64,000 bases of DNA from Bilabrum cf. latius. Its lineage: Eukaryota. The position numbers and the translations under genes were made by a program. Under the pieces are notes generated by a model. The model had not been told where the DNA came from. It did no database searches and was given only the letters and a program-made list of their open reading frames with translations. The stretch covers positions 682,001 to 746,000 of the forward strand of contig OZ237739.1 in assembly GCA_965178125.1 (NCBI GenBank), written 5' to 3'. Positions 12-64,000 of this stretch are shown piece by piece (positions within the stretch are counted from its first letter, which is position 1; each line of letters starts with the position of its first letter).

Positions 12-3000
12 TCACTTTGAAAGCTTGGACTGCACTGCCAGTCCAGAAGGCTGTTCATTGCTCCACTTCCCTGTGCGTCGATTCACGAACACGACGGTGC
101 CATCAGTGCCAGCCACCCGCTCCCACTCCGAGCCCTCCCCAGGGCCTGCACCGGCACCGGCACCTCCGCCGGCAGCCGTGCCACTGCCTCCAGCGGCACG
201 TACCATACCGTCAACCCGCTGTACTTTGGGTGTACGACCTCCTTCTACCCCGCGGTCGCGCCGCTTTCCCGAACCTTTGCCGCCCCCATCGTCGTCCCCG
301 CCTGCTCCACCTCGCCGTGCCACTATTCCTACTCCTGCTGCTCCCAGGTCAGCGTCCAGTCTGGCCTTAGCCTTGGCACCCGCCGCAAACTGGGCTTTCT
401 TCTCCTATCGCAGTGCCCGAAGTCTCTTTTCCCTGGCCTGCGCCGCCGCTCTGCTGCTGCCCGTCTCCTGCTGCCGGCTCGCCTCTTCCGCTCGCCTGAG
501 CCGAGCCGCCCTCTCCTCCTCCGCCAGCGTCCTTCTAGCTCCGAGGAGACGGCCGGAGCCTCCAAGTGCCATGCGAGAGTAGGTTTGGATGGTGCCACTG
601 CCAGTGAACAATGGGCTGAACTTGTGCCTTGCTGCATGCCTGCGCGTGATGACGCCCATTTTGAGCAGCTTGCTGGCATCCGTGGTCCACCGGGGCATAG
701 TCCATCGGCTTTCGCCAGTTTCTGCGCAGTAGTAGAAGTGCGACAGATGGTCCTCAGCTGTATCACCGGTATCGATGCCGGTGAACTGCTGCTATGAATC
801 GTCCTCGGGCTGATGCGGAACGAGCTCCCAAGCACTCGGGTCCTTCTCTGCATCGTCGCCGCCGAACACGGGAGGCTCCTTGGAATACTCGGCCCGCTGC
901 TCCCGCTTACCACGGAAGGAAGACGATGAAGCGGAAGACACATTCCGGTCAGACAGGGTCTGATCTGCCCCTGCTCCGCTGGCTGGCTCGGGCTCCAGGC
1001 GGTCCGTCTCACCAACCCTGGGATCGCTGCCATCATCAGCGTCCCCATCAAAGCCGCCCTCCTCGTCCTCGTCTTCGCCGCTACCCCCGTTGCCTGTTTC
1101 GTCCTCGAATCGAAGTCGAGCCAGCAGGAACTCGCCCCTTCGGTTGAACGCGCCGCCGGGCGGAGGGCGAGGCAAACGGCCTCGCCACACACCGGCACAC
1201 TCCCACCCTCCGCCAGTCACAGCTCCGTTCCCCGTGACCACACCCATGAGCCTAAGAGTGTCCCAGTACCTGCTAACCGATGGAAGCACCCATACCGTCC
1301 TCTTACTCCTCGGGTTGAAGAAGTACTCCTGCCCGTCCTTGGTGTACAGCTTGTCCCACTCCTCCGGTAGGCCTTCCTCCTCCACCGTGTGCGCAAGTCT
1401 GCGGATGGCGTCGCGAACGCGGTACCCTCGCCACACCCTCGCAAAATCTTTTGCGATGTTGCTGCGCCGGACTTCTTCGAATGCCTCCAGCGCCGCAGCA
1501 GAGTCATCCGCAGCGCGCTGCTCCTGCCTCTTGAGATACGCCTCAAACCCGTCATAGTCCTTCCCAGCGGCCTGCAAGACGTAAGACAGGAGGTTCACGG
1601 CATGCTGATTCCTCGGTTCTATATCGATGGCATCCAAGAGAACCCGCTCAGCCTGCCAGTGCTCCCCCTTGAGTGCAGATAGCAGCGCCCCCCAGCTCAT
1701 TAGCGCGACTTGGTCGTGCTTGTCGTGGTCATAGGCGTGCTGGAAGAAGCCCAGCTCAGCCATGGCAAAAACTGACAGATTGCGAGACACGCTCCGCTGG
1801 CCAGGTTTTTCCCTCAGGACATCTTCGGCGGACCGGGCACGCTCGATCATCACCTCGATTACGTCGAAGGACTCTTCCTGGGTCACCATGAGCAGGAGCG
1901 CAAAGCCGTACAGGATCACTGGTTCGTCTGGGCCTCGTCGGGTCATCCAGTCCAGCAGCCCCACGTACATCTGCCTTGCCCTAGCCAGGTCACGCTTGAT
2001 TGTCTGCTGGTAGAGCGCGTAGTTTACCCTCGCTGCAACATCCGTCGGCCGCTCCAGGTAGGAGTCCTCTGCCTGGCGCATCACCCGCTTGGCCTTGACA
2101 CACCGCATGACTGCCTTCCGCAGACGGGCAGCTCGGTATGACAGCGCAACGTGGCTGCTGGCGTAGTCCTCCTCCCGGATGTGGCCGATGCGTCTGTTCT
2201 CATCGCCCTGCCGGCTGGCAGCTCTATCAGCCCGCACCCACTCGAGGGGCTAGTGCCAACCTGCGGCATCGCTCGGGATGCTGGGGTCAACAACTTGAAG
2301 ACCGGTTGGCTCTGCAATCGAATGAGACAACGAGTGCCCCTGGAGCTGTCTGGCAAGGGCAAGAAACGCATGAGCGCGTTCAAGCCAAGCATCGCTCTTT
2401 CCACCCACCCTAGACTCTCCTTGCGATCCGCGCATGGCAGGCATATCACAAGGATGCAGGCACGCGGATGGCAGGGGCCTCCACCAACCGTGCTGGGTGT
2501 GTGGTCGCAGCCTTCGCGCGGCAGTGTCCAAGTCCCAGTCTCCTTGTGGCAGAGGGGTCCGGCAGCACAAGGGCCAGTCCTGCTGGACCTACCACGGCCA
2601 CATTTTCCCCACGAGGACCGGATCCATCCGTGCCGATGAGTCTGGCACGTAGAATTTAGGCAGAACTCGCACGGCAGGCACTGGCCGCTCGCCCGGGTCA
2701 TACTTGGCTGACATCAGCCGGCCATCAGGACCCTCTGGTAGCAGGGCAAACTCGCTCCAGCCGTTTCGGCGTCGCAGTAGCAGGCCTCGCTCCTTGGCCA
2801 ACTGCTAGAAATAGGATTCTTCCTGCTGACCACTTGGCGGCCAAAAGGCAGACGCTGCACGGATCCATCGCACAAATACCCTGACGCGAAAGCCCAGATA
2901 CACCCTTTGAATCGTCCAAGCAGCCCACTGTTCGGACTGTTTCTTGTGTTCAGCATACCATGTGAGGACGCCTTGCCGACCACGCCAGATGCGTTGTAGT

Positions 3001-6000
3001 GCAGTTGCACCGTCACGCTCCCTGCGCTTCAAATCGACCACCTTTCGCGCACGGAAGCAGCGGAATGCGCATTGCACAATCAGTGAGGCAGCTGACATCT
3101 CCCTAACCGCCCGCATTGCCCTCCTCGCGCGCGAGCGACGGAACGCGCGCTGCATAGCTCGCGCTGCCTGGCTGCGTTGGATCTGAATTTCGAGCAAGGC
3201 CTGCTCGCGCTGCTTGTCCCTCCTGTAGTCCTCCACCGTCGCATCATCCACCTCAGCCTTGGCGGGGTTTCGCCGCCTTCGCAGTTCCTTGCGACCCAGA
3301 CGAGCGACTTCAAGCGGGTCGTCGTCCTGCGTCTCACCGGAGACAGTGTGTCTGAACCGCACCCTACCCCGAGTTGTGTCTACAAAGGGTTCCCAGCCGC
3401 CCCCAAGCTCGTCCGGTCGCTGCTCCGTCTCCTCGCCGGTGATTCGGTGCCGCCAAATCGTCTTTCCATCAAGCAACCTCACGCTCTCCGACCAGTCTCC
3501 TCGCTTGCCGAAACTGAAGCCCCCGGATGCGACCAAACGGCCGCCAGCCGTGGCTAGCGGCCTGCTATGATGCGCAGCCTGCCCGTTGGCTTGTGGGCTG
3601 CGAAGACCGACCCCCAGCCGGGGCAAGGATGTTGCATCAAGCGAACCAAGCGGGGCTGTCTTGAACACGGAATCATCAAGGTGTTGCTTATGCTGCATCG
3701 ATCGGCTGTCCGACTGTCCAAAGGCACTGGTGACGGAGCCAGCTGGCCCTTCGGCAGACGACGCAGATCCACGCTACGATTGTCCCCAAGTGCTCGACGG
3801 GCTCGCCAGCTCGACAGCATGGGCGGTATCCTCATCGATAGAGAGCTGAGACTCGAACCCAGGGCTGGTCGGTCCCCCGAAATGGGGCGTGCTCTGCTGC
3901 ATCGAGGTACCCAGGGCAGCAGGCAGACCACCCGGACGAGCGGTCCCGCGCGATGACGTACCAAATACAGAGTCGTCCCGCTTCAGCGATGACGCAGCAT
4001 CCGGTGCATAACTCAGTCGAGCCCCAATTCCCTTGAACTCGTGAGCGGGAGTAGCCGGTCGCAGCGCGCCAAACCGAGTCTCCGTGAGCTTGTCCAGTGC
4101 CTCCTGACCGTGACCGTGCCCAGTGCTTGAGGATCTTGCCGATCGATCTCCATCTGTAATGTGCTCATCCTGCGCCTACCCAGCCACTGCTTCTGCGTCT
4201 TCCTTCACAAGCCTGGCCTCTCCGCTGCCGGAAACGACCACCTCGACAAACTCAGCGAGCAGCAATCTCTCGAGCTTAGCTGAGCCGCACATGCGGGCCT
4301 CGCCGAGGGCTGTCCTGCCCTAGAAGTTCTTGATGTTGGCATCTAGCTCGTGCTGCAGCAGGAGCTCTGCGCAGTCTGCGGCGTCCAGGGCAGCGCAGAC
4401 GTGAAGGGCAGTCTCCCCACGGAAGTTCGTGTCGTCAGGTACAGCCGCATTGTTCAGCAGTTCTGCCACTGCAGGGGCAATCCCAAGCCTGCAGGCCATG
4501 TGCAGCGCCGTGTCACCAGCCGAGTTCTGAATGCGCACGTCTGCATCACCCTCCACAAGTGATGCCAGCATTTCCGCAGAAATCTGCGCCGGTTCCGCAT
4601 TCACCTCCTCAGAATTCCCATGGGCACCAGAAGCAGCGTCACTCCCAGTTGGGCCAGGTGAATCCGAGGCCTCTTCTGTGACCGAATCGCCACTTGCTTC
4701 CGCTCGGTATCCCTGTCCTTCTTGCTTCTCCAGTCCAGCGTACAAGGCAGCGTAGTGCAGAGCCGTGTTCCCGATCCTGTCTTTCAGTGCTGTGTCGGCT
4801 CCGCTGTGCACGAGCAAGGCGACCATCGCGCTGTGGCCAGACTCCACAGCCACATGAAGCGGAGATTTTCCCTCGTACTGCCTTGGATTCGGCACTGCGC
4901 CTGCTACTAGTAACGAACTTGCAATCTGAACACTGCCACGCCTAGCAACGACGTGCAGGGGGGTCTCTGCCTTGCTGTCCCTCGCATTCGGTGACAATCG
5001 CCACTTTCCTTGCAGGAGTACGTCAACGGTAGTCAAATTTCCAAACTAGCACGCTAAATGCAAGGCAGTTTGACGCTGTGCGTCCACGATACCGCCCTTG
5101 GCAACGTTCTGCAGGAGAACCTCACAGCTGTCTGCGCGGCCGTGTTTGGCCGCAAGCATGAGCGGAGTCAGGCCCTCAGTATCCTATATCTCTGTGTCGG
5201 CACCTCGAGACACAACGTAGTCCAGCAGCTCCATCTGCTTTGGAAACGGGCGCGCCGTCGCAAGCACGTGCACAACGGTACGACCTGTTGCGTCCTGCTG
5301 GTCGGCGTTGGCCCCAGCTCGCAGGCAGGCTTTCACGATCCGCCTGCTGCCGTGGGTCGCGGCACGCATAAGCATGTTTCGGCCATCTCGATCCTGGGTA
5401 GTTGCCCAGTAGAAAGCATGTTCGCCGTAGAGATAAGGCAGCAGCACGTCAGCCTCCTTCTCGTCCGCAAGACGCATCATGAGCTCGATGCGCTCGAATG
5501 CAACGTCGCGCCTAGCTAGATGGCCCCGCACGATGCGCTGTATACTAGTGGCGGATTCTGCGAAGTGTCGATCCCACGCATCTCGCCGGGAGAATGCATA
5601 TGCTCGCCAGGCGCGCTAAACGCTGCGAGCTGATCTGCTCCACGTCCTTATTCTCCTTGCTAGCCGCCTTGCGCCGTAAGCTCGCCAGCGTGACTGTATC
5701 ACCGTGGCCGCAAGTCGCTGTCGCCGCATAGTTGCCACCAAGAACTGAGCTCGTCGTGCCCTGTACACTGCTTGCAGACCCAGTGCCACTGCTAGCCTTG
5801 CCTGTTTGCAGCTGGTTGCAGAATCTCGCCAGTCGTGGAATCTGCCCCGAAGCGATGTATCCATGGCGCGCTTAAACATTGCCGCCACCTGCTTGTTCCG
5901 CCTCACGACCCCTCTCCAGAGCAGCAGGCAGGAGCTCTCCAGTCTCCTCTGGATTCGTCCGAGAGACAACTTGATCAGTCGCTGCCGCCGCGCTTGCTCT

Positions 6001-9000
6001 CGCTGCACGGCCACTGCCAAGTGCCTGCCTGCGAAACCTCGCCAGAGAGACTGCAAACCTCGAGCAGCACGGTGCATTGCAACGAGTCGGCGCGCAAATC
6101 TTCCACGGTACCGCTGCTGTAGACCCGAAGCAACACGAAGCCTCGCGTCCCTGCAAGCGCGAGCGTGCGCATAGAGGCCCCCCACGAGCACATGCCTCTA
6201 CCGCGACGTGGTGATTCGACGATACAGAGCCCTGGCACCGCGCCTTCTGTCCCAGTGGCGCTTCCAACCGTTGAACGCAGAACGCTGTACCCGTGTAAGT
6301 ACGTGCTTTAAGAAGCTCTACGCCTTGGAATGCTTGGTTGCGTTCACCTTGCGCATGATCTGATAGTCCTCTCTGGCCCGTCGGCCAAGCCACAGCCTCT
6401 CAAGATGGCCGGCAATCCTCCGCGCCGACTTGTGCTAGTCACTTCTCTGCTTCCATAGCTTAAACCGCTCTTTGATTCTCCGGTTGGTGCCCTTTCTCGC
6501 GCTGCTCTCCAACTGTGCCCATCTTGCCCAAGCTGAGAAAACCCGGCCGACATGCCTTCCCTGCATTTCGTGCACAAACCGGCGCACAATGTGCCTCTTA
6601 AGGCCTAATTCGTGGTCCATCAAACGTATGAGCTGCTCCTGTTGCTCTCTGAGCAGCCTTTCGATAGCAGCTTCCCGATCACTCTCAATTTCATCCTTGC
6701 GGCGCTGCACATCGACCTGGGCCTCTTGCCGAATGCGGTCGCGCTCGAGTCTATCTCGATATGCGTGCTAGATGCGAGTGGCTGCGCGTTCAGATAGCTC
6801 CATGGCAAAGTGTTGTACGTCATCTACAACGGCATCATGCGCGTCGAGCTAATGGATCGCACCGTTGTTGATGCTGTCGCTGACGTCCTGCGGGCTCGGC
6901 GGCCGCGTGCGCAAGCGGTCAAACTCATCCAGAGCCGCCTCTAGGTGCCAAGGGATGCAGGCATCCCAGAGGCTTTCGTATACGTTGTGAGCTGGAGAGT
7001 CGCCGGGATACGGAAGCTTGCCCGCCAGAGCGAGGACTCCAGGCGGTGCCCCGCTAGTACTACCACCAGGCTCATGCTGCCGGCGGGAGATCCACCTCTG
7101 CTCTAGCCTGAGCATGCTGAGCCTAAACGCGGCCAATCCTCGGCGGAGAGCAGGTCCTTGGTCCATGGCAAATCGCGTATTTCGAGGATCTTTCTTATCT
7201 CTTCGGGCAATAGGAGGCAGTGGTGCCGGTTTCCGTCCAAAGCCGGCGCCAGACGCCGCATCGATGGTGGCCCACGATGCCTCTTCCGCCTCCTTGGCTT
7301 GAGCTGCCCTTCGCGCTGCCTTTGCGAGCGATTTTTCAAGCCTCGCTATCTCTCGACCAAGCTATTCTTTCCTGGCTATTTGCCTGGATGCCTTGGCTGC
7401 GAGTTCGGCTTTCTTGTCAAAATCGGATGGCTTGCCTGTCCACCTGCCGTTCAGCAGCATTTCGTCGCTCTAGTTTGTTTCAATAGCCTAATTGATGCGT
7501 GTCAGCGAATTTTGGCACACCTACAGCTGCTGGTGAACCTCTTGCTCATCTGAAGCAGCCTGTTTGGCTGCTGCAGCTGCACGAAGCACACGATCGGGGC
7601 GAGTGCCGGTTGCACTTCCAGGCTCAGCCTAGACATTCTGTTGCAGAGGGCCGTCATGCTCCAACGCTGAACGGCGAACGTCGTCATCTGACGCTGCAAC
7701 AGCGCTATAAACGAACCGGAAGAATTCCCGTGTATCTGCCAGCGGCACTGCAAAACCATCCAGCTGCCGCAGCACGCCGGATTTGATGAGGGCACAGCAG
7801 GCTGTGTCAACCAGCCGCTGTGCACACCCTCTCAGCGGTCTCGACATCGCCTCTCCCGATGGTATCTCATCGTTTGATCCATTTCCTCCACTTGCATGGC
7901 TCGAATGCACGCTCTGCACGCGCTTCTGGTCGCGTGGGACAAGGTCTGCAGGTGGCTCGCAAGCCGAACCTTGTCGGGCCTCAAAGGCAGCACGCAGCAC
8001 CACCTGGACCGCTTCAACCGACAAGAACACTCTACCAACTTGTCCTGACAGTCGATCGTCCCGCAAGGACACAAATGCTTTCTCAAGTGGAACCGCTCGT
8101 CCCTGGTACTCGTCTGCATACCCCTGCCTGGATCTGAGGTTCAGGCCAAGCATGGCGCTGGCCGCCCTCCGTACGGCTAGCATTGCACTCAAAGCCAAAG
8201 GATCGTCCGACTGCCTCAGTAGCCTGCTGAAGTGCGCCACTTCGGGGAATGCGGGGGGCAACATGGATTGATCCACACTAGAGGGGTCGTCGTCGCCTGG
8301 CGAGACATCCACTGTCTGCTGAGTACCTGAGCGCTGGCTTGTTTCCGCACGTGTACGGGGCTTGGCCATGTGGTGCATTGACAGCATCCAGCGGTCTACA
8401 AAGGTGTGGCATGCCGCCGGAAGGCCAGCCTTCCTCCTCATCTGCCTTGCCACGCAGGCCGGAAAGTCACGGGTCGGGTCAACAGACAGGTCACCGGATG
8501 AAATGGCAGCAGCATCTGATACCTCGTCTAGCACATCCTCTACTGTAGACAAGGTACTGCGCGGATCCATCAGTTTGAACGGCTTGCTTGCATGTCTACT
8601 GCTGGAGATGGCGGGGAGCGGTGCCTTGGCAGAGCTCCGAGGCGATGCCTCTTCCGCGCTGCCCTGCCCCCACGCCACTCTCTATGGCAGCACGTCCCTG
8701 CGAGGTGCATCGGCATCGGCATCGGCATCAACCCGACCCGGTCGCCCAGCAAGGGATGAGGAAGACTTGGTGTGGTGCAGCCGAGCAGGCATGGTGCCTC
8801 CCAGCCCGGCAAACGGTGAATCCGGTCTCAGATGGCGCTGGCGGCTGCGGCCAGTCCTCGTCCTGCCTCTGGCCTTGCCGCGCCCGCTGCCCAATCCACC
8901 GGTGGATTCGCGTTCCAAGTGCCTCGAGGAGCCCGCGCTGCCTGGTGCTCGTCTTGTACCGCCCGCGATGTGCCTGTCGCGAGCATTCTCTAGGTCCTTT

Positions 9001-9758
9001 GCATTCCTTCTGCTCGCATGATGACCGCTGCCGCTGCCGACCGCGCTAGTTCCGCCTCGAGGCCTGGTGCCAAGCCGCTTCACCGCAACACGCGCTCTAC
9101 TGCTCTTTTCAATTGCTCTTGGCCGAGGTACTAGACGGTCCAACGCAGAGTAGAAGGAATAGTACTGCTGGCGAAGGACCTCTTGGGCACCAATCATGGC
9201 TGGACTGGGGTCTCCTGCGGGGTCCGAGCCGCTTGCCGCCACGGCGGCGAGTTTTTCGTCACCTACGGCGCCAGCCGCAGCAGGTTTCCAGGTGGTTTGC
9301 AGCGATGGCAACTTTGGTGCAATGCTGGATTGTTTTCCTGATACATCCATGCCCACCTCGCGATCCACTCCACGGTCAGCGAGCTGTATTCGCAACTCCT
9401 CCGTGACCTCTGCGTAACCCACGTTCGCTTCGATTTCAGCAGCACTTCTATAGCGACTTGGGGAGCTCGAAATGCCCTAATAAGTTGATGCTAGCGGAGC
9501 TTCTTGGGATTCATGCTCCTCCAAGAGCGCACGATTGCCTTTGTTTCTGGCAATATCGCTCTGTTTCGTTTCCTCCTACTCGTCAATATCAAAGGCATTT
9601 CGCAATTCGGCCACGGATAAACTTGCCAGACTTTGCTGTTTGTCTCTTCTCTTCTTTCGAAGTCTTCTTGATCGGTCAGACTGTTTCACAGTCTAATCAA
9701 TGGAGAATGGCGACTGTACAACCCCACCTGCTGCACTAAACCACTCATTACGCTACAT
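12..9758 (-). CDS. Giant (~3248 aa) intronless protein with IQ motifs, ankyrin repeats, WW domains and a TPR-like segment (TAG read as Gln)
   Basis: ORF pieces 8682-9422, 7629-8678, 6849-7166, 6435-6710, 5616-6191, 5184-5531, 4320-5036, 2805-3698, 2589-2801, 2250-2570, 792-2237, 405-698 and 12-323 share one frame and are separated only by TAG (~26). ATG at 9758, TGA at 14-12. IQ motifs (AATRI*HAYR, ARSV*RAWR, ATVIQSRWR), ankyrin repeats (GKSPLHVAV, GNTALHYAA, EI*DTEGLTPLMLAA), WW domains (EEWDKLYTKDGQEYFFNPRSKRTVWVLP; WERVAGTDGTVVFVNRRTGKWS). Confidence 0.85.
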
Positions 9759-10075
9759 AGACCGAACAATATTCACAACTAAACTACTCGTGGCACAATG
9801 TAAGCCATTACGCCGATATTACTGGGCTTGAAGCCACCCCAAAGCATTATTGCGAACGGATTCAACAGAACGTTCACTAGGGTTCCTTGGCTGCGAAATG
9901 GCGCGCTGAGCGCCGCGCTCGGTTCGTACCAATAACAACAGCCAGGATAGCTTAAAATAGCTTGGTAGATGTTCCACGGGGAAGTTTAAATTAGTTATTC
10001 CTGGTAACTTTGGCCTGCGAGGCGTCAGTACAGCTAGCCGTTTCCTTAACTTCAGCTGACGCGTGCGCTGACAAC
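9759..10075. promoter_or_regulatory. Short AT-richer divergent (head-to-head) intergenic region, likely bidirectional promoter
   Basis: 317 bp between the ATG at 9758 (-) and the ATG at 10076 (+); lower GC than the flanking CDS. Function is inferred from position. Confidence 0.45.
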
Positions 10076-13000
10076 ATGGCTGCGATGGAAGTCTTGATGC
10101 TGCTGGAAGGCCGGGCCCTCGAAAGAGTATACGACGAGTTCAAGAAGAAGGCAGATGAAACAGATGGCGATGGGCTGACTCTCGATGAGTTTATTACTGC
10201 GTGCCTCAAGAACATTGAGTCCACTGATGCTACCCGCGTTGAGCTCGTCGACCAGCTGACGGAGCTATTTGCGGCAATCGATGTCAATGGAGACGAGTAG
10301 TTGGAGTGGTCTGAGTTTATTGGATTCATTGCAGAAGCCGGTGTTATGAGTTCTGTCAAGAAACTGCCGCCTAGGCCCTTCCGGTACGCATTCGATGCAA
10401 TGTTCGTTGACCGGTGTTCAAGACCAGATTGCAAGCAGATCCTAAAGCTGCAGCGCTCTAGCGGCAGGAGAGGCTGCATTTACGCTCTTGAGGATGAAAT
10501 TAGCGAAATTAGAATCTACGATTAGATCTGCAGTGCGCAAATCGGATCCATCAACGTGGACCCCAACCATCGAGCCGGGCAGCCGCCACTCTTTGCAATC
10601 GATATGGAGTTGATCGCGGAGCATCGGCTGGTCGCAGTCATGCTTAGTAGCTACACAATTGGACTTTGGCACACGGCGGGGTAGCAGTCGTGTCACGGCA
10701 TGCTGCCTCGGCGAGGAGCACACCCAAGTTGCATGTGCTGGAATGCAGACTCCAACCGCCTATTCGTCGGCTGCAAGGATGGCAGGGTCCAGGTGTTTGA
10801 CGTGGAATCGAGAAAGCTCGTCGCTGAAATACGAGCGCACGCAGACGTCGTCACCAGCATCTTATCTGTGTATACGGGATCGACCGGCTCCATCGTCACC
10901 CACGGCCTGGACAAGAAAGTGCAGCTGTGGGACGCAACCCTCGGTTCTACTCGGCCACAGCCCATCGTAGGAACCAAGCAGATTCTAAATTGTCTCACAT
11001 GGATGCCGAAGAACGCCAAGCTATTGGCCGCGACGCACGGTGGCGGCGGGGAGATTATTGCGTGGGACTTGGCGATCACGGGAGTGGCATTCTAGCTGGT
11101 TGGCCACCAGAGTGACGTGGTCGCCATGAGCCCGGTGCACAACGATTCAAGGCTGGAGCGCCTGGTGTCTGTCGATTCCACCTGCATGTTTCGCGTGTGG
11201 GAGCTGTACGAATCGGCCACTGGTGAGATCCCGTGCCTGACCGTGTTCAGCCCGCCTGCGGTGTCCGTGCAGCAACCCAACTGCATGCTCGTCCTCTCAT
11301 TCAGAGACGAGAGCAATTCCGGTGGACAACAAGCCATAGGCGACGGGCGCGCTATGGGAGGGGCCAGTGGCAGCAGGTCTGATAGTGAAAGGCAGGCCGC
11401 CGCAGTGACTCGGTCATTGAAGCGGAAAGACGAGAACCCACCGGCCCTTCTTGGAGTCGCTGACGAGCACACCATTGTGCTGGCTGGGATGCGCATGCAG
11501 CTGTACCGTCACACCTTCTTTGTGCCCGGGTCTATTGTCAATGTGGCCGTTCACAATCCAGTGTCACATGCTTTCGTGACTTGCGTCGGGACAGAGCTAT
11601 CTGTCTGGGACGACCACAATGGGCGGAAGACCCTTGAGCTTCCCAAAGTCTTCCCCACTGACGCAACTGCGATCTGTTTCGACGACCGCAAGCGCAAATT
11701 GATTATTGGGAAGGCTGATGGAGTCATCACTGCTTATAATTGCTTGAACGGGGCGGAAATGAAGGAGGTCAGTGTTCCGCATGCGGCCGAGGTCACGAGC
11801 CTCGTGTACCACGTCAAGGACAGGAACCTGGTGTCTACGTCGCGAGATGGAAGCATCATGGTGCACGACGAAGAGCCGCAGGAATCGATAGAGACATTAC
11901 GGTACGTTTAGAATGCGCACGACGGTGAGTGTACGTGCGGCGCTGTCAGTGAGGAGCTGGCCTATATCGCGTCCGGTGGGGCTGACGGTGTCGTCAGGGT
12001 GTGGGACTACGAGTCTCTCGAGCTTATCGTGGAGCTAGTGCATGAGATCAGCAACAGGACCAGCATAGATAGCCATAACATAGATCCTAAAGCTGCGGTG
12101 GCACCTCCTGTCCGAGGCGGCAGCGTGCGAATGCACTCGTCTGCAGGTGCAATGGCGACACCTGCGGTGCTGCCCGGTGTTCGGGGCCGTGTCGGTCCGT
12201 CCATTCTATCGCTGAAACTATCGGGTGCCCGCCCGCTTCTGGTGTCGTCAGACGCTGCAGGTACTATTCGATTGTGGGGCTTACAGGCAGCCCCAGTCTC
12301 GAGAGAGTTTACCCACATTGCTGCGTTCTCGCACACTTTTCCGCAGGCCCGTTCCGTGCTCGATACGTCCCCACCAAGTGGTCGAGCAAGCCTCCGTGCT
12401 ATCCGAGCCGCAGTTGCCATGTCAAAGCCATCTCACCTGCATCAATCCGGACAGATCTCTCAGGCGGCTGCTCGGTAGCTGGCAGCACTCAGGAAAAAGC
12501 GGAGGCCTGCCGGAGTCCGGTTACCAGTGGAGGATGAGGCCAGTCGGTGGTGGGAGGGAGAGCTATAGAGGAACAGCTACATCTCGCGAGTGATTGACTT
12601 CTTGTTGGAGCGAAGCAAGCGAGCAGGCCTCCTTGCACCTCAGAGCAAAGCAGACAAGTAGCGGGAATAGAGAATCTAGGCGGCAGTCGCAACTGCGTCC
12701 GATCGTGGCCTCACTCCGGAACAAGCTGCAGCTGAGGCTGAGAAAATGAGCGGTGTCGACGGCGACGACAAGGCTTCAGTTGCAGCACTGTATGCTATTG
12801 CAAATGCTTCGCTTATCCGAGACGAGATGCAGCGCCTAACAGCAGCCCAAAAGAATCCGAGAATGCGACAGGTAGTCGAGGCTACTGCCGAAGCGGCTCA
12901 CTTGATTGGGCTTGAATTCGACCTTGAGGCACTGGACATGCTAGCCCAGGCAACCGTTGGTCAAAATTCATCCACAGAGACCTATAAAGACTGCAGAGCT

Positions 13001-18700: not shown

Positions 18701-20280
18701 ATATCCTTATAGATCTCCAGCACGAGCTCCACCTGCAGCGGCTGGGACAGCTCCCGCAGGAGAGTCTGCTCGTCGAATCCCGTGGCAGACCTTCGCTCAA
18801 AAATAAGCTCAAAGTGGTCTCGCACTCTGGCCCGCAGCCCTGCGCTAAGCTTCTTGGAACTCATGAAGCTCTCCACCTGCTCCATGCGGATACGTTTCCT
18901 GCGACTAGCGCTATCCACCTGGTCGATATAGGCAGCCAAAGTGGCGGTGATAAACGAGAAGAGAACGGCCCCAATGGCAGTAATGATAGTCACGTAGATC
19001 CTCTCGGCCATTGTGACCGGTACGAGGTCTCCAAGACCAAGGGTGCTCAGGATCGTGAGTGACCAGTATATGCTGGCCACGTATCTCTCGTCCAAGGGAG
19101 CATCCAAGAGCTCGTATCTGGCAAGCCACGCATCCGGGTCCGGGAATTCAGAGATAGCCACGAACGAGAACCCGCACGCCACCCAGTGCGAGATCAGAAA
19201 GAACCACATTGCGAACTTGATGATCCGCAGAGAGGCCGGGTTGAAGGTGAGGTGCTCCTGAAGCGGTCGAAGGTACTTGTCCAGCCGCCACGCCCTCAGG
19301 ATCTTGATGAAGCGCAGCAGCTTTAGCAACTTGAACAACCGTGGCAGTCTCAGCAGCCTGAATCCCCTGAGCTAGGAGCCCAAGCTGGGTGCGATGATGC
19401 TGATTGGGATGCTGCCAACGAGGTCTATGGCAAAATACGAGGTCAGGTAGTTCCACCTCACCTGATTCCAATCCACCACCACCTAGTTCTCGTGCTCGTA
19501 GGCGCTGCAGAAGTTCACCCCGATGTCAACCATGAAAAATACATCCACGATAATCTCGGTGATCACCCAAGCATCGTACGTGACTGTCTCGTCGCTGTAG
19601 AAACCGATCCGAAACGGTATTATGGTGGCCGACCAGATGAGTAGCACAACCACGATTAGGTGCCAGACGCGCAAGAACTGGCTGTTCGGAAGCAGGAGCC
19701 ACGTGTTCCTCACGTATTCCGGCAGCTGGTCTGGGCGAGCGTGTTCCAACTCGGCTGCCGAGATCACCCGGGCCGTGCCGATGTCGTCCTCCTGCTCCTG
19801 GCGGATGTGAGCGACTATTGTCATGGCTCGAAATCGCTATCTAACGTTCAGCCATCTCAGCTATGCTCTTTCTTTCGCCTCAAGACTTTCCATTGCACGG
19901 GTGGCCTTCCCGGACGAGCCTGCCGTTGCCGAGCTCCCTGCATCGTACGCATCGGCGACTACTGACGCGGTGCCTGCTGCAGATTCGACAGACTGGTGTC
20001 TTCGTGGTTCACTGGCACCTTGATCTTGTCCAGGCGACTCCCTTGAAGGAGGTCGAGGCTTCGAGGGCGGTCCGGGTACTGGAGTGCGAGGCCCGATCAG
20101 GGCATCGATCCCGGCCCTTGAGCTCCCGACAGTGGGCTCTCCGAGTCTTATCTCATGCTTACTATCTGGAGCATCATGATTTGGCGTTTGCTGCGCCTGC
20201 CTTGCAGAAGCGAGTAAATTAGTCGTCTCTGCTCTGCTGACGACACCGCTTGTGTTTCCAGCAGGATGAACTCTTGACAT
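15736..20280 (-). CDS. Voltage-gated K+ channel of the cyclic-nucleotide-binding-domain family (KCNH/HCN/Shaker-like) with a long low-complexity C-tail (~1514 aa; TAG read as Gln)
   Basis: Pieces 19861-20280, 19483-19824, 17944-19338, 17014-17295, 16627-16962 and 15892-16515 are in one frame joined by TAG; TGA at 15738-15736. S1-S3 (WHLIVVVLLIWSATIIPFRIGF; DVFFMVDIGVNF), S4 (FRLLRLPRLFKLLKLLRFIK), S5 (SHWVACG), pore (YWSLTILSTLGLGDLVP), C-linker and CNBD (FGEIALL). Confidence 0.9.
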
Positions 20281-20743
20281 CGCCACAGGAATCAGGATGT
20301 ATTTTATGCAAACGAGTCACCTTGCAGTCCTTGAGTCCAGCCCTGCCAATGGTAGATTGGTGCAAACACACGAACGGCAATATCTCGAATTCGGTCAATC
20401 ACCGCAAGGCTTGACGCTGACAGAACAATCGTAGTAGCAGCAGCGAAATAATTACTATATTCTAAGCCTAGTCTGATTAGCAGTCTGGCGAAAAGTGCTT
20501 CAGATTGCCTAGGATGCACCGATAAATTGCTGCGGATGTTGCGACCAACCCCAATCTGGAGGTCGCACACTGGCAGCCGGTTGTAACCGTTGTCAGCAGT
20601 TTCCTTTGTTCCACTCCCAAGTAAAGGGGAGAGCGATCGAGAGGCTGTGCGAGCCAGGAATTGTTTTGTTTATATTGACGGAGTTGTTTACATCCCTCAA
20701 GTATTCGGTATCGAGCCGCTACGAAGAGAGAACCGCGACTTGG

Positions 20744-45146: not shown

Positions 45147-45505
45147 GGTTTCGCGAGACTAAGAAAAGCTGAGCACGCGCCGCGCGGCGCTAGCACGCGC
45201 CACGGCAGCGTTTAGTCGTGACGACTCGCGCCTGCCACTGCAGACCCCTCAGTGGGGGAGGGGGGGGGGGGCGGGCGGTGTACCGCCTCTTCGAGGCGAA
45301 ATCCTGTGCCCCCCTTATTAAACTGCGTGTTACTGGCCAACAATTAAAGTGATATTATCCCGGAGATGACATATAAGTTCTAAAAATGGTAGAAAGAGCC
45401 AAGAATGGTAGCAAATTTTTATTAGAAGATGCGACGACCCCAACGTCCCGCAAGGGTTCCGATACCCTAATCCGATCCAGTGTGAGAGGGTCACGTATTC
45501 ACAAA

Positions 45506-54976: not shown

Positions 54977-57479
54977 ATGCATTTCGCTCAAGCATCATGC
55001 GGTGCAGCGTTATGCGTTCTTCTCTTGATTGGTGCTGCGTCTGGAGAGGGTGTCTTGAACTGCACTCATTTGCTCGGTGTTGACTCCGCTCTGGATGGAA
55101 ACGTCGAACTCGATTCGACAATCGAGTACACTGTTGAACATAAAGTTGTAGACGATCGAGTGCTGGTGCGTCTGAGCGCCAATCACGATGGTTGGCTTGG
55201 ATTTGGCATCGCAGAACAGGTGAGCGACTAAGATCACGGAATTCTGCGACGTCCCTCGCACTTCTGTGTATCCTGGTGGCATGATTTGATTTGCTGCTGG
55301 CGTTAATCGACTTGATACGCGTCTATGCGATGGAAATTTGGCTTTGTGGAGGAGAATCAAGCAGGAACGCCTGGCTCGTATGGCGGTGGGTTGGGCGATT
55401 GTTGCGTTTGACTCTGGGCACGGGCTGGGTCGCAATCTGGTTTATAGCAGACATTTCTCCGGCAAGCTCGCCTAAGTCTTAAAGTCCAAAGTTAGTTGGT
55501 GGACAAAGCACTGAAGATTTCTCATTTCGCAGACCAGCGGACACATGAAGGGTTCCGATCTAGTGACGGCTTACGTCACAGATAGTGGCGCTGTCCAGGT
55601 CCAGGACAGGTACGCTCCTTTCGTTCCCGTTGCGTACGACAACGTCACTGGAGCAGCGTCCTATCCGGGGCTCACTGCGATTGCAGATGACCGCAACGAC
55701 TGGACTATCGAAAACGGATTCCGGTCATCTGACGGGTACATGCGGATCGAGCTGAGCCGACCCCTGGACACGAACGACACGCAAGACCGCCCCATCGCAA
55801 CCGGCCCACAGAGGATCGTGTGGGCCTGGGGCAGCTCAGGCGCAGTGGGATACCACGGCAGCCATCGCGGCACCGGAACCATCGAGTTCGTCCCAGCGGC
55901 AGGGAGTGCTTCGGCCGCCAGGCAAGTGCTTGATCAAGACGCGTCGGCGCTGGACGAAAAGCCCAGCCCAGCGGAACTCGTAGGGCGCCGCGCATCCTTC
56001 CAGCCAGAGCAATCACCGATCCCCCCGCACGACGGGTACTGGGACATCAACATGAAGGGCTACGAGATCCCGAACTAGCGCACCACGTACGCTTGCCAGG
56101 CGGCCTACCTGCCCACGGACAGGAAGAGGCACGTGGTCGCATTCAGGCCCATCATCCAGGAAGAGAACACCAAGCTGGTGCACCACGCCATCGTGCACAT
56201 CTGCACAGGGAACACGACCTACTTCAGGGACCACTTGGCACCGATGAAGTGCGGGGGGGACGACAAGCCGGGGCAGGGTCTGTCCCCCCTCGGCGACCAG
56301 TCCTCCAGGTGCTCGGGTCTCATGTACTCGTGGGCCGTGGGGCACGGTGACTGGGTGCTGCCTGATCTGGCCGGCCTGCCCGTGGGGCCAGACTCAACGG
56401 ACATATCGCAGATCATCCTGGAGATGCACTACGACAATCCCAGCGTGATCCAGGGACGCGTGGACAGCAGCGGATTCCGGGCTTTCTATTCCGAGTCTCT
56501 CAGGGAACACGACGCAGGCGGCATGACGCTCGGAGATCCGCTCGTCAGCATGGACGACATCCCGGCAGGCCAGAGTCGCGTGCATCGCCAGGCGACCTGT
56601 CCCTCCGCCTGCACTGCAGGTTTCAACGAGACTGTGACCGTCTTTGCCGAGTTCCCTCACGCGCACTACCACGGCAGGCAGCTGTACTCGGAGCTGTACA
56701 ACGAAGACGGTGACTTCCAGCGGGTCACCACCCGGATCGACTACTGGGACAACGGATTCCAGCAGATGCTGCAGGGCTCGTCTTTCCACGAGTACCAGAT
56801 CCGGCCAGGGGATTCCCTGCAGACACACTGCGTCTTCGACACTTCGGCATCGCCCACGGCGGTGCAGTTCGGCATAGAGACGCGCGACGAAATGTGCATG
56901 ATATTCCTGTTCTTCTATCCGGCGCAATTTCGCGGCATCGATGCGAGCGGGCAGCCCGCCAGCCTGTCCAACTGCGGCCTCGCCGACAACAACAATCAGG
57001 TGTCCGCGTGCGGGGGCCTCTCCCAGGTGCCGATCTCGGATTATTTCCTCCCCTTCACGCAGCTGGACAGGCAAGCCATCGATCCTGAGGCCACGGATCG
57101 TTTCGGAGCCGTAACAGTTCCCGGACCAGGGGAGCCCACCGAGGCGGATGCCTGCAGCGGGGTGTACTCGACTGAGCACAACCCTCCCGGGGCGGATGGC
57201 GGTGGCAATGGCCACCAGTCTACTGATGACTCACCAGGGCCTCTACAAGCCGGGGGGATCGCGGTAATTGCTGTGGGGGCTGCTATATTGCTCTTCGCGG
57301 TGGTGGGAGTGCTTGTCCTGGCGGCAAAGGCTACTGCAGATGACGCCTACTACTTGGCGTCCGCTGGAGGCACCCCTGGATCGACCAACATACAGAAGGG
57401 GGCCGTACGTTCCGAACGTGCCCACGCGGGACAGCTGTCCGAGGAGCAGTCTGATGCAAGGCCGCCAGAGTCGGTGTGA
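54977..57479 (+). CDS. DOMON + copper type II ascorbate-dependent monooxygenase (DBH/MOXD1-like, ~729 aa) with signal peptide and C-terminal TM; exons 54977-55219 and 55533-57479
   Basis: GWLGFGIAEQ|TSGHMKGSDLV (DOMON); SRPLDTNDTQD; IVWAWG..YHG; IPN*RTTYAC; LVHHAIVHIC; LEMHYDNP; DSSG; PHAHYHG; DEMCM (Cu ligands). One TAG at 56076; TGA end. Confidence 0.9.
55220..55532 (+). other. Spliceosomal intron (313 nt, phase 0)
   Basis: GTGAGC...TTTCGCAG; removal reconstitutes the DOMON GxGxxxxxxxMxGSD motif. Confidence 0.85.
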
Positions 57480-58215: not shown

Positions 58216-61200
58216 ATGCGCACGAACTCTTTGGGTGAACTCTGCCTCAGCAGGCTCATGCTCGCCTTTTCTACCATTTTTTGCAGATCCATAGCGCAAA
58301 GTAGACACAGTTCATCCGAAATTAATCCCTAGGCGCGCAAACTCTCGTCTACTACGCTACCGGACCCCGTAAAGGACGTAGACACAATCGGGCATGGAAC
58401 GACTGGGATCACCACCCTGCAGAACGGAATCTACTTTGGCTCGGGCGTTACGATGATTGATGACCTGAATGGAGATGGAAGGCCAGAGATGGTTGTAGGA
58501 GCGGACGGATACGACGACGGTGGACCGAATGGAGGCGCCATCGTTGTGATTTAGATGGGCGCGGGTGGCTTGCCGGAATCTAGCTCGCTTGTGCCGAGCA
58601 CACAAGTGGATATGTGGTCAGAATTTACCTTGGGCGACTATTCGTAGTTCGGATTCAGCGTCTGCGGTTACACGCCGCACTAGGACGGGACAAGCCGTGT
58701 GGTTGTTGGTGCACCCGGCGTGTCCGACGCGCGGGGCTCGGTCTTCCTCATCGGGCTCTCGAGCTCCAGAGTTGCGTAGCGCTTGTCTTCGGACATGATC
58801 ACCTCCGTGAACGGCTATTCCTTGGAGGACTTTGACAAGTTTGGTAACAGCGTCGCCTGGGTGACCGGACTGGGCAGTGGACCCGGGGCAACGGACGCCA
58901 TCGTGGTGGGCGCACCCGGTGACGACGACCGCGACTCCGGTGCGGGGGCCGTCTACGTTCTGTTCGTGAACGCGCAGGGCTCGGTGGACGACGAGAACAA
59001 GATTTCCGGCTCCGGCGGCACCCTCGGGACGTTCGCCGTGGACAGCTTCGGCGAGTCGGTCGGCAGCCTGGGTGACGTCGACGACGACTCAGTTCCGGAT
59101 ATTGCAGTGGGAGCGCACTACCATGACGACGGAAGCTCGGACGCTGGCGCTGTATGGGTGATCTTCCTCACCACAGCCGGGGGAAGCAAGGACTACAGCA
59201 AGCTGGCGCACTCCAGCGGAGGCATAGCCCTTGGCAGCCTGGACGACTACGCATACTTTGGCAAGTCTGTCTGCGGGATGGGAGACCTGAACGGTGATTC
59301 AATTCCGGATCTTGCGGTAGGGGCCACCGGGGATTCCGATGCGGGAACGAACGCGGGGGCTGTCTTCATCATCACTTTGGACAGGGAGGGGCAGGCGACA
59401 GGGCAGGGCAAGATCACGGGCGGCACGGGAGGCCTCGCAGCGGCTGCAGTGAGTGCGCGGGACAAGTTTGGCACGAGCGTGGCTGCAATCCCCGGCAAGT
59501 CATCCGGCGACCGGACTCGCCTGGCCGTGGGGGCGGCCTACCGAAGCCTGGGGGGCACTGAGAGGGGCGCCGTTCACCTGCTGGAGCTGGCGAACTTGGT
59601 ACCGACCCCTAGTCCAACACCCAGCCCCTCTTCCAGCCCCTTGCCCACGCCCAGCTTCACTCCAACACCAAGTCCCAGCCCGGAGTGGCCACGGTTCAAC
59701 AGTCCCCCACCGGGCGTGTACTTTTTAGATCCAGACAGGCTACCCTCTGATTGGGACTGGACGACCGCAACAGAGCCACGGACGGTGGACGGAACCACAT
59801 ATAGCACCGCCTCAGTGACGGTGTCACCGGACAGAAGGGTCCTGACGATGACCCAGGAGCAGTGCGCCGGGGCCTATGCCTAGCTGTCGCTAGGCCATCC
59901 GATCGGAGACCTCAGCCTGACCTTCGCGGTATCAGCCAGCACCAGCGCGACGATCCCATAGGAGACCCACTTCATGCTGGTAGACTCAAATGGTACCCAG
60001 CTGGACAACGAACTAGTGACATCGACAGCCCTTGCTGGAACGCAGGTGCAATTGGCTGCTGCTGGCCTCACTAATGGACTGGAGGTCTTCTTCCTCGTGC
60101 GGTTCTGGCCGCAGGACCCCTACTACTACGGCTGCAGCGGTGACGTCGCATCTCCACACACGCTGCCACTGCCTGCCAGAGGAGGCACCAAGTGCGGTGT
60201 GCAGGCCTGCGATGGCGCTGGCGTCGGACAGATGAGGGTTGTGATGACGCTCACCCCACCTAGCATTGAGGGCAACTTTGGGGGGATGGCACCTTCTGCT
60301 CTCACCGACATGCGTGTGACGAGTGACCCAGGGAATAGAGGCCTGGGGTGGGGCTTCAATGCGCTGCTTGTTGGGGCCATGTGCAAAGGCAAGGCGTTGG
60401 CGTCGGCGTCGCGATGTGTCACGCAGGGCAGCGTGCTGGGAGCCACCTGCGACAACCTGAACTTCGCGGCGGACGGCCAGAGCCTCCGGTGCGACGTCTC
60501 CGGTCTGTCACCGCAGGCCGGCAGTACTAACCAATCTTTGCTCGTGCGTCGCCTTGGCACTGGGCCGCATCTGTCTATCGGAATTATGAAATGGCAGGAA
60601 GGCAGGGTGGACCATGCTGACCGAGTGCCCTATACGATGCTGGAGGACGCAAACCGCCACAAGACGCAGGGGGTGTCGATGATCGAGAGCCTTGGTACGA
60701 GTCTGACCGGCGGACGATCCGCGATCGTCACGAGGGCAAGTGCCATCCGGCTGGGTAGCTCTCTGTCCCTCCCCGGCGGCAACGGCGCTCTATTTGTTCA
60801 CACCACAGACGATGCGTTCATTGCAAGGTCCCTAAACCTGACCGAGACCGCGTTTGGGAACGGCCAAGCAGATGCTGTCTCCACATCCAACCCCCTGCAC
60901 CTCCCCTCCGGCAGCTCAGTGCAGCTTCTCGGAGACATTGACGGCAGAGACGGCGTGGTGCAGCACGTGATCACCGGCAACCCGTCCATCAGCTCGCTTA
61001 CTGTGAGGACCGTGTATCCGGCAGAGGACCCCTTGGGAGACCTGCCGTTCGCAGTGAAAGACTCGTACACCATAGCGCCCAGCGAGTACGCGGGAAAACG
61101 CTACGGTGCGAGTATCTCATACATGGGAAGGGGATTGCTTGGCAGGATGGTTATTCACGACCCAGTTGTGGCAGTAGGTGCGCCCAGTGCGGCGGCTGTT

Positions 61201-64000
61201 GACGTGTTCTTGCTAAAGCGAGTTGGGTCAGCAGGGAGTTACGCCCGTAGTAGAGTACCTATTACGACGCTATCCACCGGTATGCTGCCGCCAGCCTCGG
61301 CTTTTGGCTCGTCCTTGTGCTATCTGGGCCCGCTTCGACCGGAAGAGCAGGGAACGGAGTGGGAGCCGGCCCGCATGGCTGGGTAGGTGGCGATTGCAGT
61401 GGGCGCCCCCCACTACACTGACCGCCTTGCTGGAGACATGCAAACCGGCGTGATCGTGCTGATCTTAATGGATGTCGGCTGGAACGGCACTGCGGGCTCA
61501 CCGACGCTCCGGGGCACCTGGAGACACATCCTCAGCCCAGTGAAGAATTTGCCCGGCGCCCTGCCTCCAGTGCGTACCTCGCTGTATGACGAAAGCGGAC
61601 CTGTGCCGTACCCGGACTTGTTCGACCAGTCATGCTTCGGGGTCTCCATCGAGCTCGTTGGCTTCCGGTACGATGACGATGCGGATGACCGCTCGGTGGT
61701 GCTAGCAGTGGGCGCCCATTACCAAGACAGACAGAAGGGCGCCGTGCTCCTGACGTCAGTCAACGTGGGTCCAATAACTCCGGACATGACTGTTGAGCGC
61801 ATGCTCACCGTCTATGACATGCAGCCGGCGGAAGAAGACATGTACGACGTGCGGGAATCGAGTTGCAGCTTTGGTGTGGGCATGGAAATGATGCGATCGT
61901 ACGACGTGCCGCTGCACATGCAGTCCCTCAATCTGCTGGTGGGAATGCACCCGGGGTTCTGCGGATCTGGTGCACTGCAGGTACAACTGCGGGATATTAT
62001 CGGCAACGACTCGGAGCCGATCTATCCCAACCCTCCGTGGATGCACCGGGCAGACGCGTTGATCCTCGATGCCCTGGAGTGCAGTGGCACGGCCAGTTTG
62101 TGCCAGTCGTTGGCAGCGGCCGGTGGCAGTGGAGGCCAGCCAGTAGGCCAAGCCGGGGACGCGGTGCTGCTTGGTGCAGCACCGACCGAGGCAGCGTACC
62201 TCGAAGCACTCGGGCTTGGTATCAACGCCAGCACTACCGGTCCCGGCAGTGATTTTCATGCTAGAAATCGGAACAGGACCATGTACCACGTTCAGAGGGC
62301 TGCATGTCAGCTGGCCGGGGATGCCCTCGGGGGGCAAGCACCGGCTGCAACTGGAGGTGACAGAGCGCGGCAAGGTGACATCCTGTGGGCCGGTCCGGCT
62401 GCAGCGTGCTAGGCGTCGTTCGCTAACCAGCCAGGTGGCCTGCTTGCTGTGGTAATTGCACGCAACCACTCAGAAGGTCACTGGAGGCCGGGAATGCCAG
62501 TTCTGGAGGGACCTCTTCCATCGGAGTTGGGACTGGCGCAGGAGGCTGCCATGGTCTGGGTAGGTGGGCTTCGGTGCCTCACACGGTCTTGGGTCGACGG
62601 CCCGTCGTGGGTCACTATCACGTGCGAGCCGGAGAGGGGGCTAGTTCCGGGTTTGGCTGAGGTGGTGGTACGCTCGGGTGGGGGCGGCTGGTCCACCGAT
62701 GGGCTGGAGGCTCGAGGGATTCGGAGTGGGAGTGGGTGTGCACTCGCTTCCAGGCAAGCCGGAGGTGGATACCCTCGTCCAGAGGAGCCGTCTGCCGACG
62801 GCGTTGCCTGCGTCGCCATTGGTTACGCGGGAGAACTCGGATTGCGAGCGGTGGAATCCGCTGCACTTGACGAGAAATGGTGGGAGGTGCCCTTGCTGCC
62901 GTCAGAGGAGGCGATCTTCGAACCAGTCGGGAATGCCTGGCACGGCGGCTCTGTGCTCGATGCAAGCAAACGGAGCGTGGCCGGCGGTGCAAACGCTCTG
63001 TCTACAGGAGTAGCCACCGATTCGTCGTTGTGGGCGCTACGTGAGAAACACAGGAGCCCTGCTTCCCTTGGCTACCAGCACGTGCGCCTTCGGATGGGTA
63101 CCCTCTCCTGCAGAGTGTCGCCCGATGCAGGCAGTCTGATGGGACTGCAATCCCGGAACTAGCAGACTGGAAGTAGCAGGGTATCCTGCTGGGTGCACGA
63201 TGACCTCCCGGGCGGGCCGTTCCAGGCTGGCATGCACCTTCCTGGGCTGGAGTGGCTGGAGACGGCGGTCATCCCCGCATCTATCGAAGGCGACGATGCA
63301 GCTGTTGCGCCCCTATGGGTGCGATGGGCGAGATCGTAGCTCCAGGGGGTAGAGCCGCGGAAATTCTCTGTCCTAGACATGCTTCAGTCACACCGAGACG
63401 CGTCGTTGAACACGACAGTCACTCTGCGTGGGACTGGGCTAGAGCAAAATGGAACGTCGGCCGCTGTGGAGGTGTTTGTAGGAGGGGCACGCTGCCTTGG
63501 CATCGAGTATGCGGGCACAGATGCCATTCGCTGCCGAGTGCGGCCTGTCGAGGTGCGCAGTGGTGTCATCGAAATTGTGCGAGGCTCAGGAGGGCTTCTA
63601 CTTGATCCAACAGGGATTGATGCGCAGCAGGAATGGGCCATACTATCGGGAGTGGGTTCGTCCGTTTCGCTTGGAGTCCCGGCGCCAGTCGTATTGCCGG
63701 AACAAGGCTCCCCTAGTGACCGGCACACAGGGCTGCTGTCACCCGCAAACCCGGCCGTCCTGGGGTCAAGCCCCACCACCATGTCCACGAGGGGGGGTTC
63801 CGACCTGCAGCTCCTAGGCGTTGATCTAGGGGCATCACAGGGGGAGTATATCGCTTCAGTGGATATAGATGGCACGCCATGTCAAAACCTCACGTGGTTT
63901 TCCGACTTTGTCCTGCGATGCACCTCCGCTGCTTCGCTCGGAGGATAGGGCACGGTCAACGTGAATTCCATCTGGGGCCAGACCTTTGACAGCGCGCCTG
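58216..64000 (+). CDS. Large extracellular FG-GAP (integrin-alpha-like propeller) repeat protein with Pro/Ser/Thr linker and IPT/TIG domains; 3'-partial, start uncertain (TAG read as Gln)
   Basis: One frame from ~58216 to the window end with only TAG interruptions. YFGSGVTMIDDLNGDGRPEMVVGA; FGESVGSLGDVDDDSVPDIAVGA; YFGKSVCGMGDLNGDSIPDLAVGA; VVGAPG..GAVYV; a second degenerate FG-GAP set at ~61100-61750; IPT-like STRGGSDLQLLGVDLG..VDIDGTPC..LRC. Confidence 0.8.

Follow-up and report, generated by a model that had tools for sequence, protein, structure and literature searches.

The stretch of DNA analysed here (the window) spans 64,000 nucleotides of contig OZ237739.1 (assembly GCA_965178125.1, positions 682,001 to 746,000 of the forward strand), and the subject of the analysis is the meaning of the codon TAG (UAG in mRNA) in its genes. 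The window is gene-dense and intron-poor, with genes 75-160 bases apart and a GC content of 56-69% (about 60% overall); its features are collected in Table 1. Under the standard code, the longest stop-to-stop frame was 759 codons. Treating TAG as a sense codon opened long frames on both strands, with 3268, 2796, 2419, 1901 and 1526 codons, and one more of 1928 codons that remains open where the window ends. When TAA was treated as sense instead, the longest frame remained at 759 codons, and with TGA as sense no frame exceeded 1209 codons.

Table 1. Features of the window. Frames were delimited with TAG read as sense; strand, size, TAG count and terminal codon are given where they apply.
Feature	Positions	Strand	Size	Content	In-frame TAG	End
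Gene 1	12..9818	-	3268 codons	Ankyrin repeats, IQ motifs, WW (Pfam)	26	TGA
Gene 2	9956..15661	+	1901 codons	EF-hands and two WD40 propellers (Pfam)	28, including TAGTAG	TGA
Gene 3	15736..20316	-	1526 codons	HCN-like cation channel; Ion_trans and cNMP-binding	15	TGA
Gene 4	20477..28867	+	2796 codons	No Pfam family; Gln/Gly/Met-rich tail	23	TAA
Sulfatase gene	29063..30958	-	two exons		5, in two frames, one at the D-Q motif	
Sulfatase intron	29742-29900	-	159 nt	Ends GTGAGT...CAG		
Gene 5	30863..38122	+	2419 codons	Low-complexity; weak CAF1A-like match	14	TGA
Frame	38175..39455	+	426 codons	No family; moderate coding score	3	
Repeat protein	41949..43274	-	441 codons	Repeated ELW/Cys units	7	
Mucin-like frame	43821..45248	-	475 codons	Ser/Thr/Pro-repeat	4	
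Satellite array	45506-48964		3.46 kb	133-nt unit, about 26 copies, 92% matches		
tRNA-Gly(GCC)	48946-49018	-		Only RNA gene of the window		
Minisatellite	51095-51363			45-nt unit, 6 copies		
Tandem duplication	51260-51559 / 52225-52524		300 nt	100% identity, 965-nt spacing		
Open reading frame	51590-52612	-		Terminal ApaG (DUF525) domain		
Open reading frame	52555-54102	-		Terminal ApaG (DUF525) domain		
DBH-like gene	55515..57479	+		DOMON and both copper type II monooxygenase domains (Pfam)	1	TGA
FG-GAP/TIG surface-protein gene	58216..63999	+	at least 1928 codons, runs off window		12	

Stop codons were counted inside the seven long frames (14,498 codons), the five remaining frames of this DNA providing the expected numbers. 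TAG occurred internally 119 times for 117.6 expected, whereas internal TAA and TGA were both absent, for 46.8 and 216.4 expected, respectively. Across 11 stop-to-stop frames, the in-frame TAGs added up to 138, and three more open reading frames contained none. TAG made up 17.3% of the glutamine codons of the window, and Pfam domains were located on both sides of TAGs. TAG is thus an ordinary in-frame codon here, and the exclusion of TAA and TGA from the frames is far beyond chance. An earlier note on this DNA, made from the sequence alone, had described genes on both strands holding a single frame interrupted by more than 100 TAGs and never by TAA or TGA. The count bears out the first part of this description, and the second part holds for the seven long frames; a single TGA interrupts the sulfatase frame, but it lies inside a GT-AG intron whose removal restores the conserved F-A-S-D-H-G stretch. 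Codons next to TAG were enriched for Phe, Tyr and Asn, which results from the local AT content, and only 1.22-fold for Gln, so that the neighbouring codons are uninformative about the meaning of TAG.

The coordinates of the earlier note that were checked are correct, with TAG located at the Q of AATRI-Q-HAYR (6770-6768) and of ARSV-Q-RAWR (5618-5616) in gene 1, in FPD-Q-WRGD of the sulfatase (30799-30797), in IPN-Q-RTTYAC of the DBH-like protein (56076), in LSAG-Q-KAEI of gene 2 (15419), in tandem as TAGTAG (13988-13993) and within glutamine-rich runs near 28430-28530. A further TAG is present at 9755-9753 as described, and calling it the second codon of its gene depends on an unverified start codon. 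Both SPY-Q-RELWSC and NAYQTELWSC were found in the repeat protein, where one TAG aligns with a CAA/CAG glutamine codon of a sister repeat. In gene 1, six strict IQ motifs carry CAA or CAG at the Q position and one strict motif carries TAG; the second TAG-bearing IQ motif has a slightly different spacing. The TAG of the F-P-D-x-W-R motif faces Q in three of the four solved sulfatases aligned there and D in the remaining one, and a second sulfatase TAG falls at a variable site. In gene 2, the TAG within L-S-A-G-x-K-A-E-I aligns with a Q both in calmodulin (E-E-Q-I-A-E-F) and in yeast Cdc31 (E-E-Q-K-Q-E-I). Of the 10 homologues closest to the DBH-like protein, 7 have Q opposite its single TAG; across 60 aligned rows the partners were K (27), Q (10), E (5) and S (5), the K rows being distant animal sequences.

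A word-based search with the whole of gene 2 returned 15 generic WD40 proteins and no orthologues. A HMMER search with residues 1-1200 returned short public proteins, 70-94% identical, and one gene-2 protein cluster led to 15 kb of a Joint Genome Institute metagenome contig, referred to as L001. This contig (56% GC) has the same gene order as the window, with gene 1 on the minus strand, gene 2 on the plus strand, gene 3 on the minus strand and gene 4 on the plus strand. Its gene-2 orthologue is a single frame of 1914 codons containing 14 TAGs, where the standard code allows at most 500 codons. The use of TAG as a sense codon is therefore common to the window organism and to an environmental relative whose orthologous proteins are 36-72% identical to those of the window. 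As a separate observation, the channel-gene orthologue of L001 (8740-13349, minus strand) consists of two frames that overlap (8740-11718 and 11589-13349); the break may come from a frameshift, from an intron or from an error in the sequence of the contig.

The codons of L001 facing 52 aligned window TAGs were tabulated. Glutamine codons came first with 18 (15 CAG and 3 CAA), followed by Lys (6), His (5), Ala (4), Arg (4), Leu (3) and TAG itself (3); Thr, Asp, Met, Ser, Glu, Gly, Pro, Ile and Val were found once each. Among the 21 sites at which L001 has either Gln or TAG, the share of TAG (3/21) is that predicted by free synonymous use. We then restricted the comparison to conserved sites, defined as those with at least 60% of the 14 flanking residues identical, and pooled the TAG sites of both directions. 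In this stratum, TAG faces Gln at 11 of 17 sites, the others being His (2), Arg (2), Thr (1) and Asp (1), and true glutamine codons face Gln at a rate of 0.64. The two rates match, indicating that TAG behaves like a glutamine codon. A likelihood test, based on a substitution table estimated from the non-TAG columns of the same alignments, also gave glutamine as the best residue, ahead of Lys by 44.3, Arg by 51.8, Glu by 54.5 and Leu by 124.6 log-likelihood (lnL) units. Tabulating the residues opposite TAG in orthologues had been proposed in the earlier note as a check of its glutamine assignment, and the enrichment found supports that assignment.

Closer relatives are represented by shorter pieces. 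Among public sequences, fragments with 77-94% identity to gene 2 begin at Met and stop just ahead of a TAG (2), CAG (1) or GAG (1) of the window; window TAGs lying inside these fragments face Q, Q and E. The public fragment of L001 itself stops exactly at an L001 TAG, which validates reading such fragment ends as TAGs. Met-to-TAG pieces of this kind are present in public protein collections (P0087, P0107, P0208, P0122, P0089 and P0241). The trait thus seems to extend over a clade whose genes were broken by gene callers. Searched against a protein atlas, the standard-code piece of one recoded gene gave weak matches, with scores of at most 0.83. Because callers using the standard code shredded the genes of this clade, annotation, completeness estimates and metagenome surveys will be biased until table 15 is used.

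Collectively, the comparison with L001, the motif sites and the absence of in-frame TAA and TGA support the assignment made in the earlier note, UAG as glutamine with UAA and UGA as stops. With a probability of about 0.9, we conclude from these sequence comparisons that the window would be nuclear protist DNA in which UAG is an ordinary glutamine codon and UAA and UGA are the only stops, as in NCBI table 15. UAG could in principle stand for a residue other than glutamine (Glu, Lys or Leu, for example); it is known to encode Leu, Ser or Glu elsewhere (PMC11687900), single sites face Glu or Asp, and Lys is the second-commonest partner in L001 (6/52). We consider another residue extremely unlikely, as Lys, Glu and Leu all score lower in the likelihood test and the positions in the IQ motif, the sulfatase D-Q motif and the calmodulin E-E-Q motif demand glutamine.

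The sequence was then compared between public sequencing runs. Using positions 9900-19899 as a query, nine runs from 2024-2025, belonging to five studies, were found to contain the stretch, and four of them were compared over 11000-30999, leaving the uncovered parts of X7 and X8 and the gaps of X5 uncounted. Run X1 contains the whole 20 kb in one contig with zero differences, and the window may derive from it. Run X5, from another study, has contigs covering 11000-15717 and 15730-20458, and a third in which 20627-29741 is joined directly to 29901-30981, so that the sulfatase intron is missing, cut precisely at GT..AG. No letter differs in the X5 contigs, and about 65 covered TAGs are therefore unchanged. 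Run X7 shows one difference (30215 G>A), which is not at a TAG. The depths of the X5 contigs are nearly equal (67.7, 63.9 and 64.7); the kind of run is off record, and a tool guessed 'probably DNA'.

These data bear on the proposal that UAG is edited in the mRNA from U to C, giving CAG, or that the TAGs are spliced out. Editing would produce the same glutamine pattern at the protein level, and the kind of the X5 run being off record leaves room for it. However, the X5 contigs, one of them without the intron, keep every TAG they cover, the TAGs lie inside domain-coding sequence in an unchanged frame, and we know of no precedent for complete U-to-C editing at more than 100 nuclear sites. We regard editing or removal of TAGs as exceedingly improbable. 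An artefact, whether pseudogenes, sequencing error or misassembly, is hardly conceivable; nothing was found in its favour, runs from several studies have contigs that match the sequence letter for letter, the effect is confined to one stop codon out of three, and an independent metagenome contig has the same trait.

The runs gave several further observations. In X5, 12 nt separate the contig ends of genes 2 and 3, which are convergent (15717-15730), and about 170 nt separate the contig starts of genes 3 and 4, which are divergent (20458-20627). If the X5 contigs are transcripts, untranslated and intergenic regions are extremely short. The X5 and X7 contigs, from two studies, both stop before about 20510-20626, where X1 and X8 continue, which is a weak hint. 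The same DNA, with 0-1 differing letters, was found in runs under four organism labels and a 'protist metagenome'; other cultures may carry the organism along, as an associate or as a contaminant.

Under the favoured reading of UAG as an ordinary glutamine codon, UAG would be decoded by a dedicated tRNA-Gln(CUA), a single base change away from tRNA-Gln(CUG), and eRF1 would have lost or weakened its recognition of UAG while keeping that of UAA and UGA. We infer both components, the tRNA-Gln(CUA) and a change in domain 1 of eRF1, because they are established for other such codes (PMC5304391). According to the same source, the CUA anticodon pairs with UAG but not with UAA, and the eRF1 domain-1 motifs named there are GTS, NIKS and YxCxxxF.

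UAG could also be read as glutamine without any dedicated tRNA, if tRNA-Gln(CUG) decoded it by a first-position mismatch and eRF1 were weakened for UAG. tRNA-Gln(CUG) is a natural UAG suppressor in yeast. Near-cognate stop codon readthrough mediated by tRNA-Gln has been described (PMC13192750), and no tRNA with a CUA anticodon was found in the 79 kb examined. Despite these points, we consider near-cognate reading very unlikely: in-frame TAG is undepleted, reaches 28 per gene and occurs in tandem, a modest inefficiency would already abolish proteins of 3000 residues, and PMC5304391 argues that only a CUA anticodon separates UAG from UAA.

A number of results weigh against reading UAG as glutamine throughout, or against the mechanism proposed for it. 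Among the 49 window TAGs facing a non-TAG codon in L001, 31 face a codon other than Gln, mostly in poorly conserved stretches, and L001 TAGs facing a non-TAG window codon face Gln at only 4 of 31 sites. In the relative 92% identical to gene 2, TAG380 faces Glu. Human HCN1 structures show Glu and Asp opposite two TAGs of gene 3, at loop positions that are uninformative. More distant gene-2 orthologues have mostly Thr, Ser, Arg and Lys in five TAG columns, which are variable polar sites and do not discriminate between residues. Support at the RNA level from run X5 is insecure, since it rests on the spliced joint, and the support it lends against editing is moderate. The predicted tRNA-Gln(CUA) was not found in about 79 kb (the only tRNA of the window is tRNA-Gly(GCC), and L001 has none), nor is there an eRF1 gene among the frames of the window. 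Finally, some termination at UAG may escape notice in a sample of about 14 genes.

This last point leads to a dual meaning of UAG, which would stand for glutamine within genes but for stop close to the ends of some of them, as in the context-dependent ciliate codes of the Condylostoma type. The frames were delimited by TAA or TGA by construction (of 13 closed frames, 12 terminate in TGA and the other in TAA), and the sample comprises only about 14 genes, which leaves room for such a code. Several gene ends argue against it. L001 shares a TAG located 38 codons before the end of gene 3, and the sequence beyond this TAG is conserved (local identity 0.79). In gene 2, an EF-hand domain lies downstream of the last TAG, L001 has a TAA within about 5 codons of the window TGA, and one X5 contig ends 56 nt beyond this TGA. 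None of the genes requires a TAG stop, and we consider a dual meaning unlikely.

The window contains no marker gene. To place the organism, the top 20 clusters of gene-2 orthologues were looked up; 8 carried a source label and 6 of these named a species. The named species were Cafeteria roenbergensis, which was the best-ranked named match, Platysulcus tardus, Hondaea fermentalgiana (two clusters), Aphanomyces and the malawimonad Gefionella, so that five of the six species-named clusters are stramenopile. A maximum-likelihood tree of gene 2 was built from 15 rows, limited to those whose best match spans query positions 120-640. In this tree, the window and L001 (100/100) are sister to Cafeteria and one further row (84/88). 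Two other families had as named matches a brown alga and an MMETSP eukaryote in one case, and Vitrella and oomycetes in the other. The lead, which comes from one gene, points to a heterotrophic stramenopile, possibly close to the bicosoecids. Cafeteria has a full-length standard-code orthologue of gene 2 (1885 residues), and the code change is therefore not general to that group. We also considered Iotanema or a ciliate as the source of the DNA; either identity is unlikely, given the copper monooxygenase gene and the fact that none of the 8 labelled gene-2 clusters comes from those groups.

A code in which UAG means glutamine and UAA is kept as a stop is of an already known kind. It has been described in Iotanema spirale, Protocruzia tuzeti and two phyllopharyngean ciliate lineages (PMC11687900; PMC5304391), and the earlier note, which had named Iotanema spirale and a few ciliates, was roughly right but incomplete when set beside PMC11687900. 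Similarly to the window organism, Iotanema (Fornicata) has reassigned only UAG, and the mechanism predicted for it, a tRNA-Gln(CUA) and an altered eRF1, is the one proposed here (PMC5304391). Unlike the window, which is genomic DNA with an oxygen-dependent copper monooxygenase gene and has its nearest named orthologues in stramenopiles, Iotanema is an anaerobic endobiotic metamonad represented by a transcriptome. Protocruzia tuzeti and the phyllopharyngean ciliates share the meaning of UAG and an unreassigned UAA (PMC11687900), but the window differs from these ciliates by its GC content of about 60%, by its multi-gene contig, which is at least 64 kb long and has genes of up to 9.8 kb, and by the lack of ciliates among the 8 labelled clusters.

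Other known codes share only part of the trait. In codes of the NCBI table 6 type, found in many ciliates, ulvophyte green algae, Hexamita, Streblomastix and Amoeboaphelidium (PMC11687900), a stop codon has likewise been captured for glutamine, but UAA and UAG change jointly. In contrast, no in-frame TAA was found in the window for 46.8 expected, and TAA ends gene 4 as well as gene 2 of L001. The rhizarian exLh, Scotinosphaera and the ciliate PL0344 have uncoupled UAG from UAA, as here, and use UAG for Leu, Ser and Glu, respectively (PMC11687900), whereas the residue in the window is glutamine by more than 44 lnL units. crAss-like phages (genetic code 15) read TAG as glutamine too (PMC9523058); that recoding belongs to the phage stage in bacteria, whereas the window is read here as part of a eukaryotic nuclear genome with spliceosomal introns.

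Nuclear lineages known to split UAG from UAA comprise Iotanema, Protocruzia, some phyllopharyngeans, a rhizarian, Scotinosphaera and one oligohymenophorean (PMC11687900), and the window organism is probably a further, independent case of this rare uncoupling. In the accessible open literature, exclusive of supplements and subscription journals, we found no report of nuclear UAG reassignment in a stramenopile, bicosoecid or labyrinthulomycete, nor of any other nuclear code change in stramenopiles, and a term search in the available text of an Incisomonas paper (PMC12614181) found none either. The earlier note had suggested an independent, undescribed origin. The data are consistent with this suggestion, the gene content being neither ciliate- nor fornicate-like and the nearest named orthologues being stramenopile. 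The chances seem evenly balanced that this is the first nuclear code change in a stramenopile and an independent origin of UAG as glutamine, in a GC-rich, compact-genome clade of heterotrophic flagellates near the bicosoecids. If so, the trait is old enough to span a relative with orthologues just 36-72% identical, and, having arisen in a GC-rich genome, it could not be explained by codon loss under AT pressure. The case tests whether such code changes require AT-biased genomes. A GC-rich genome with public DNA and possibly RNA contigs would also make a tractable system for the uncoupling of UAG from UAA by eRF1 and tRNA-Gln(CUA).

Several genes of the window showed further particularities. 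Gene 3 aligns with human HCN channels over 466 residues. Pfam also matched a sulfatase domain at 29063-30958, and FG-GAP and TIG domains in the last gene. In gene 5 (region 30863-31985), the first ATG is only found at codon 375, yet the coding score rises from about 31200; the gene may have an upstream exon or an unusual start. Its 5' region overlaps the start of the divergent sulfatase gene at 30889. The frame of the DBH-like gene (55515-55540) enters the DOMON profile at position 39 of 124 and lacks a signal peptide, so that this gene probably has another exon upstream and a second intron. The repeat protein consists of units of about 50 residues, with E-L-W/Y followed by C-D-T-S...V-F-N-N-x-L-Y-F, behind a Ser/Thr/Pro-rich leader; it has no Pfam match, and we take it to resemble the bacterial 'ELWxxDGT' repeat proteins.

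Several repeats lie between the mucin-like frame and the DBH-like gene. The satellite array contains no convincing coding frame and abuts and overlaps the end of the tRNA-Gly(GCC) gene. The two open reading frames with the ApaG domain share their last 200 or so residues, and the duplication in this region is either a very recent event or an assembly artefact. The minisatellite listed in Table 1 lies in the same part of the window.

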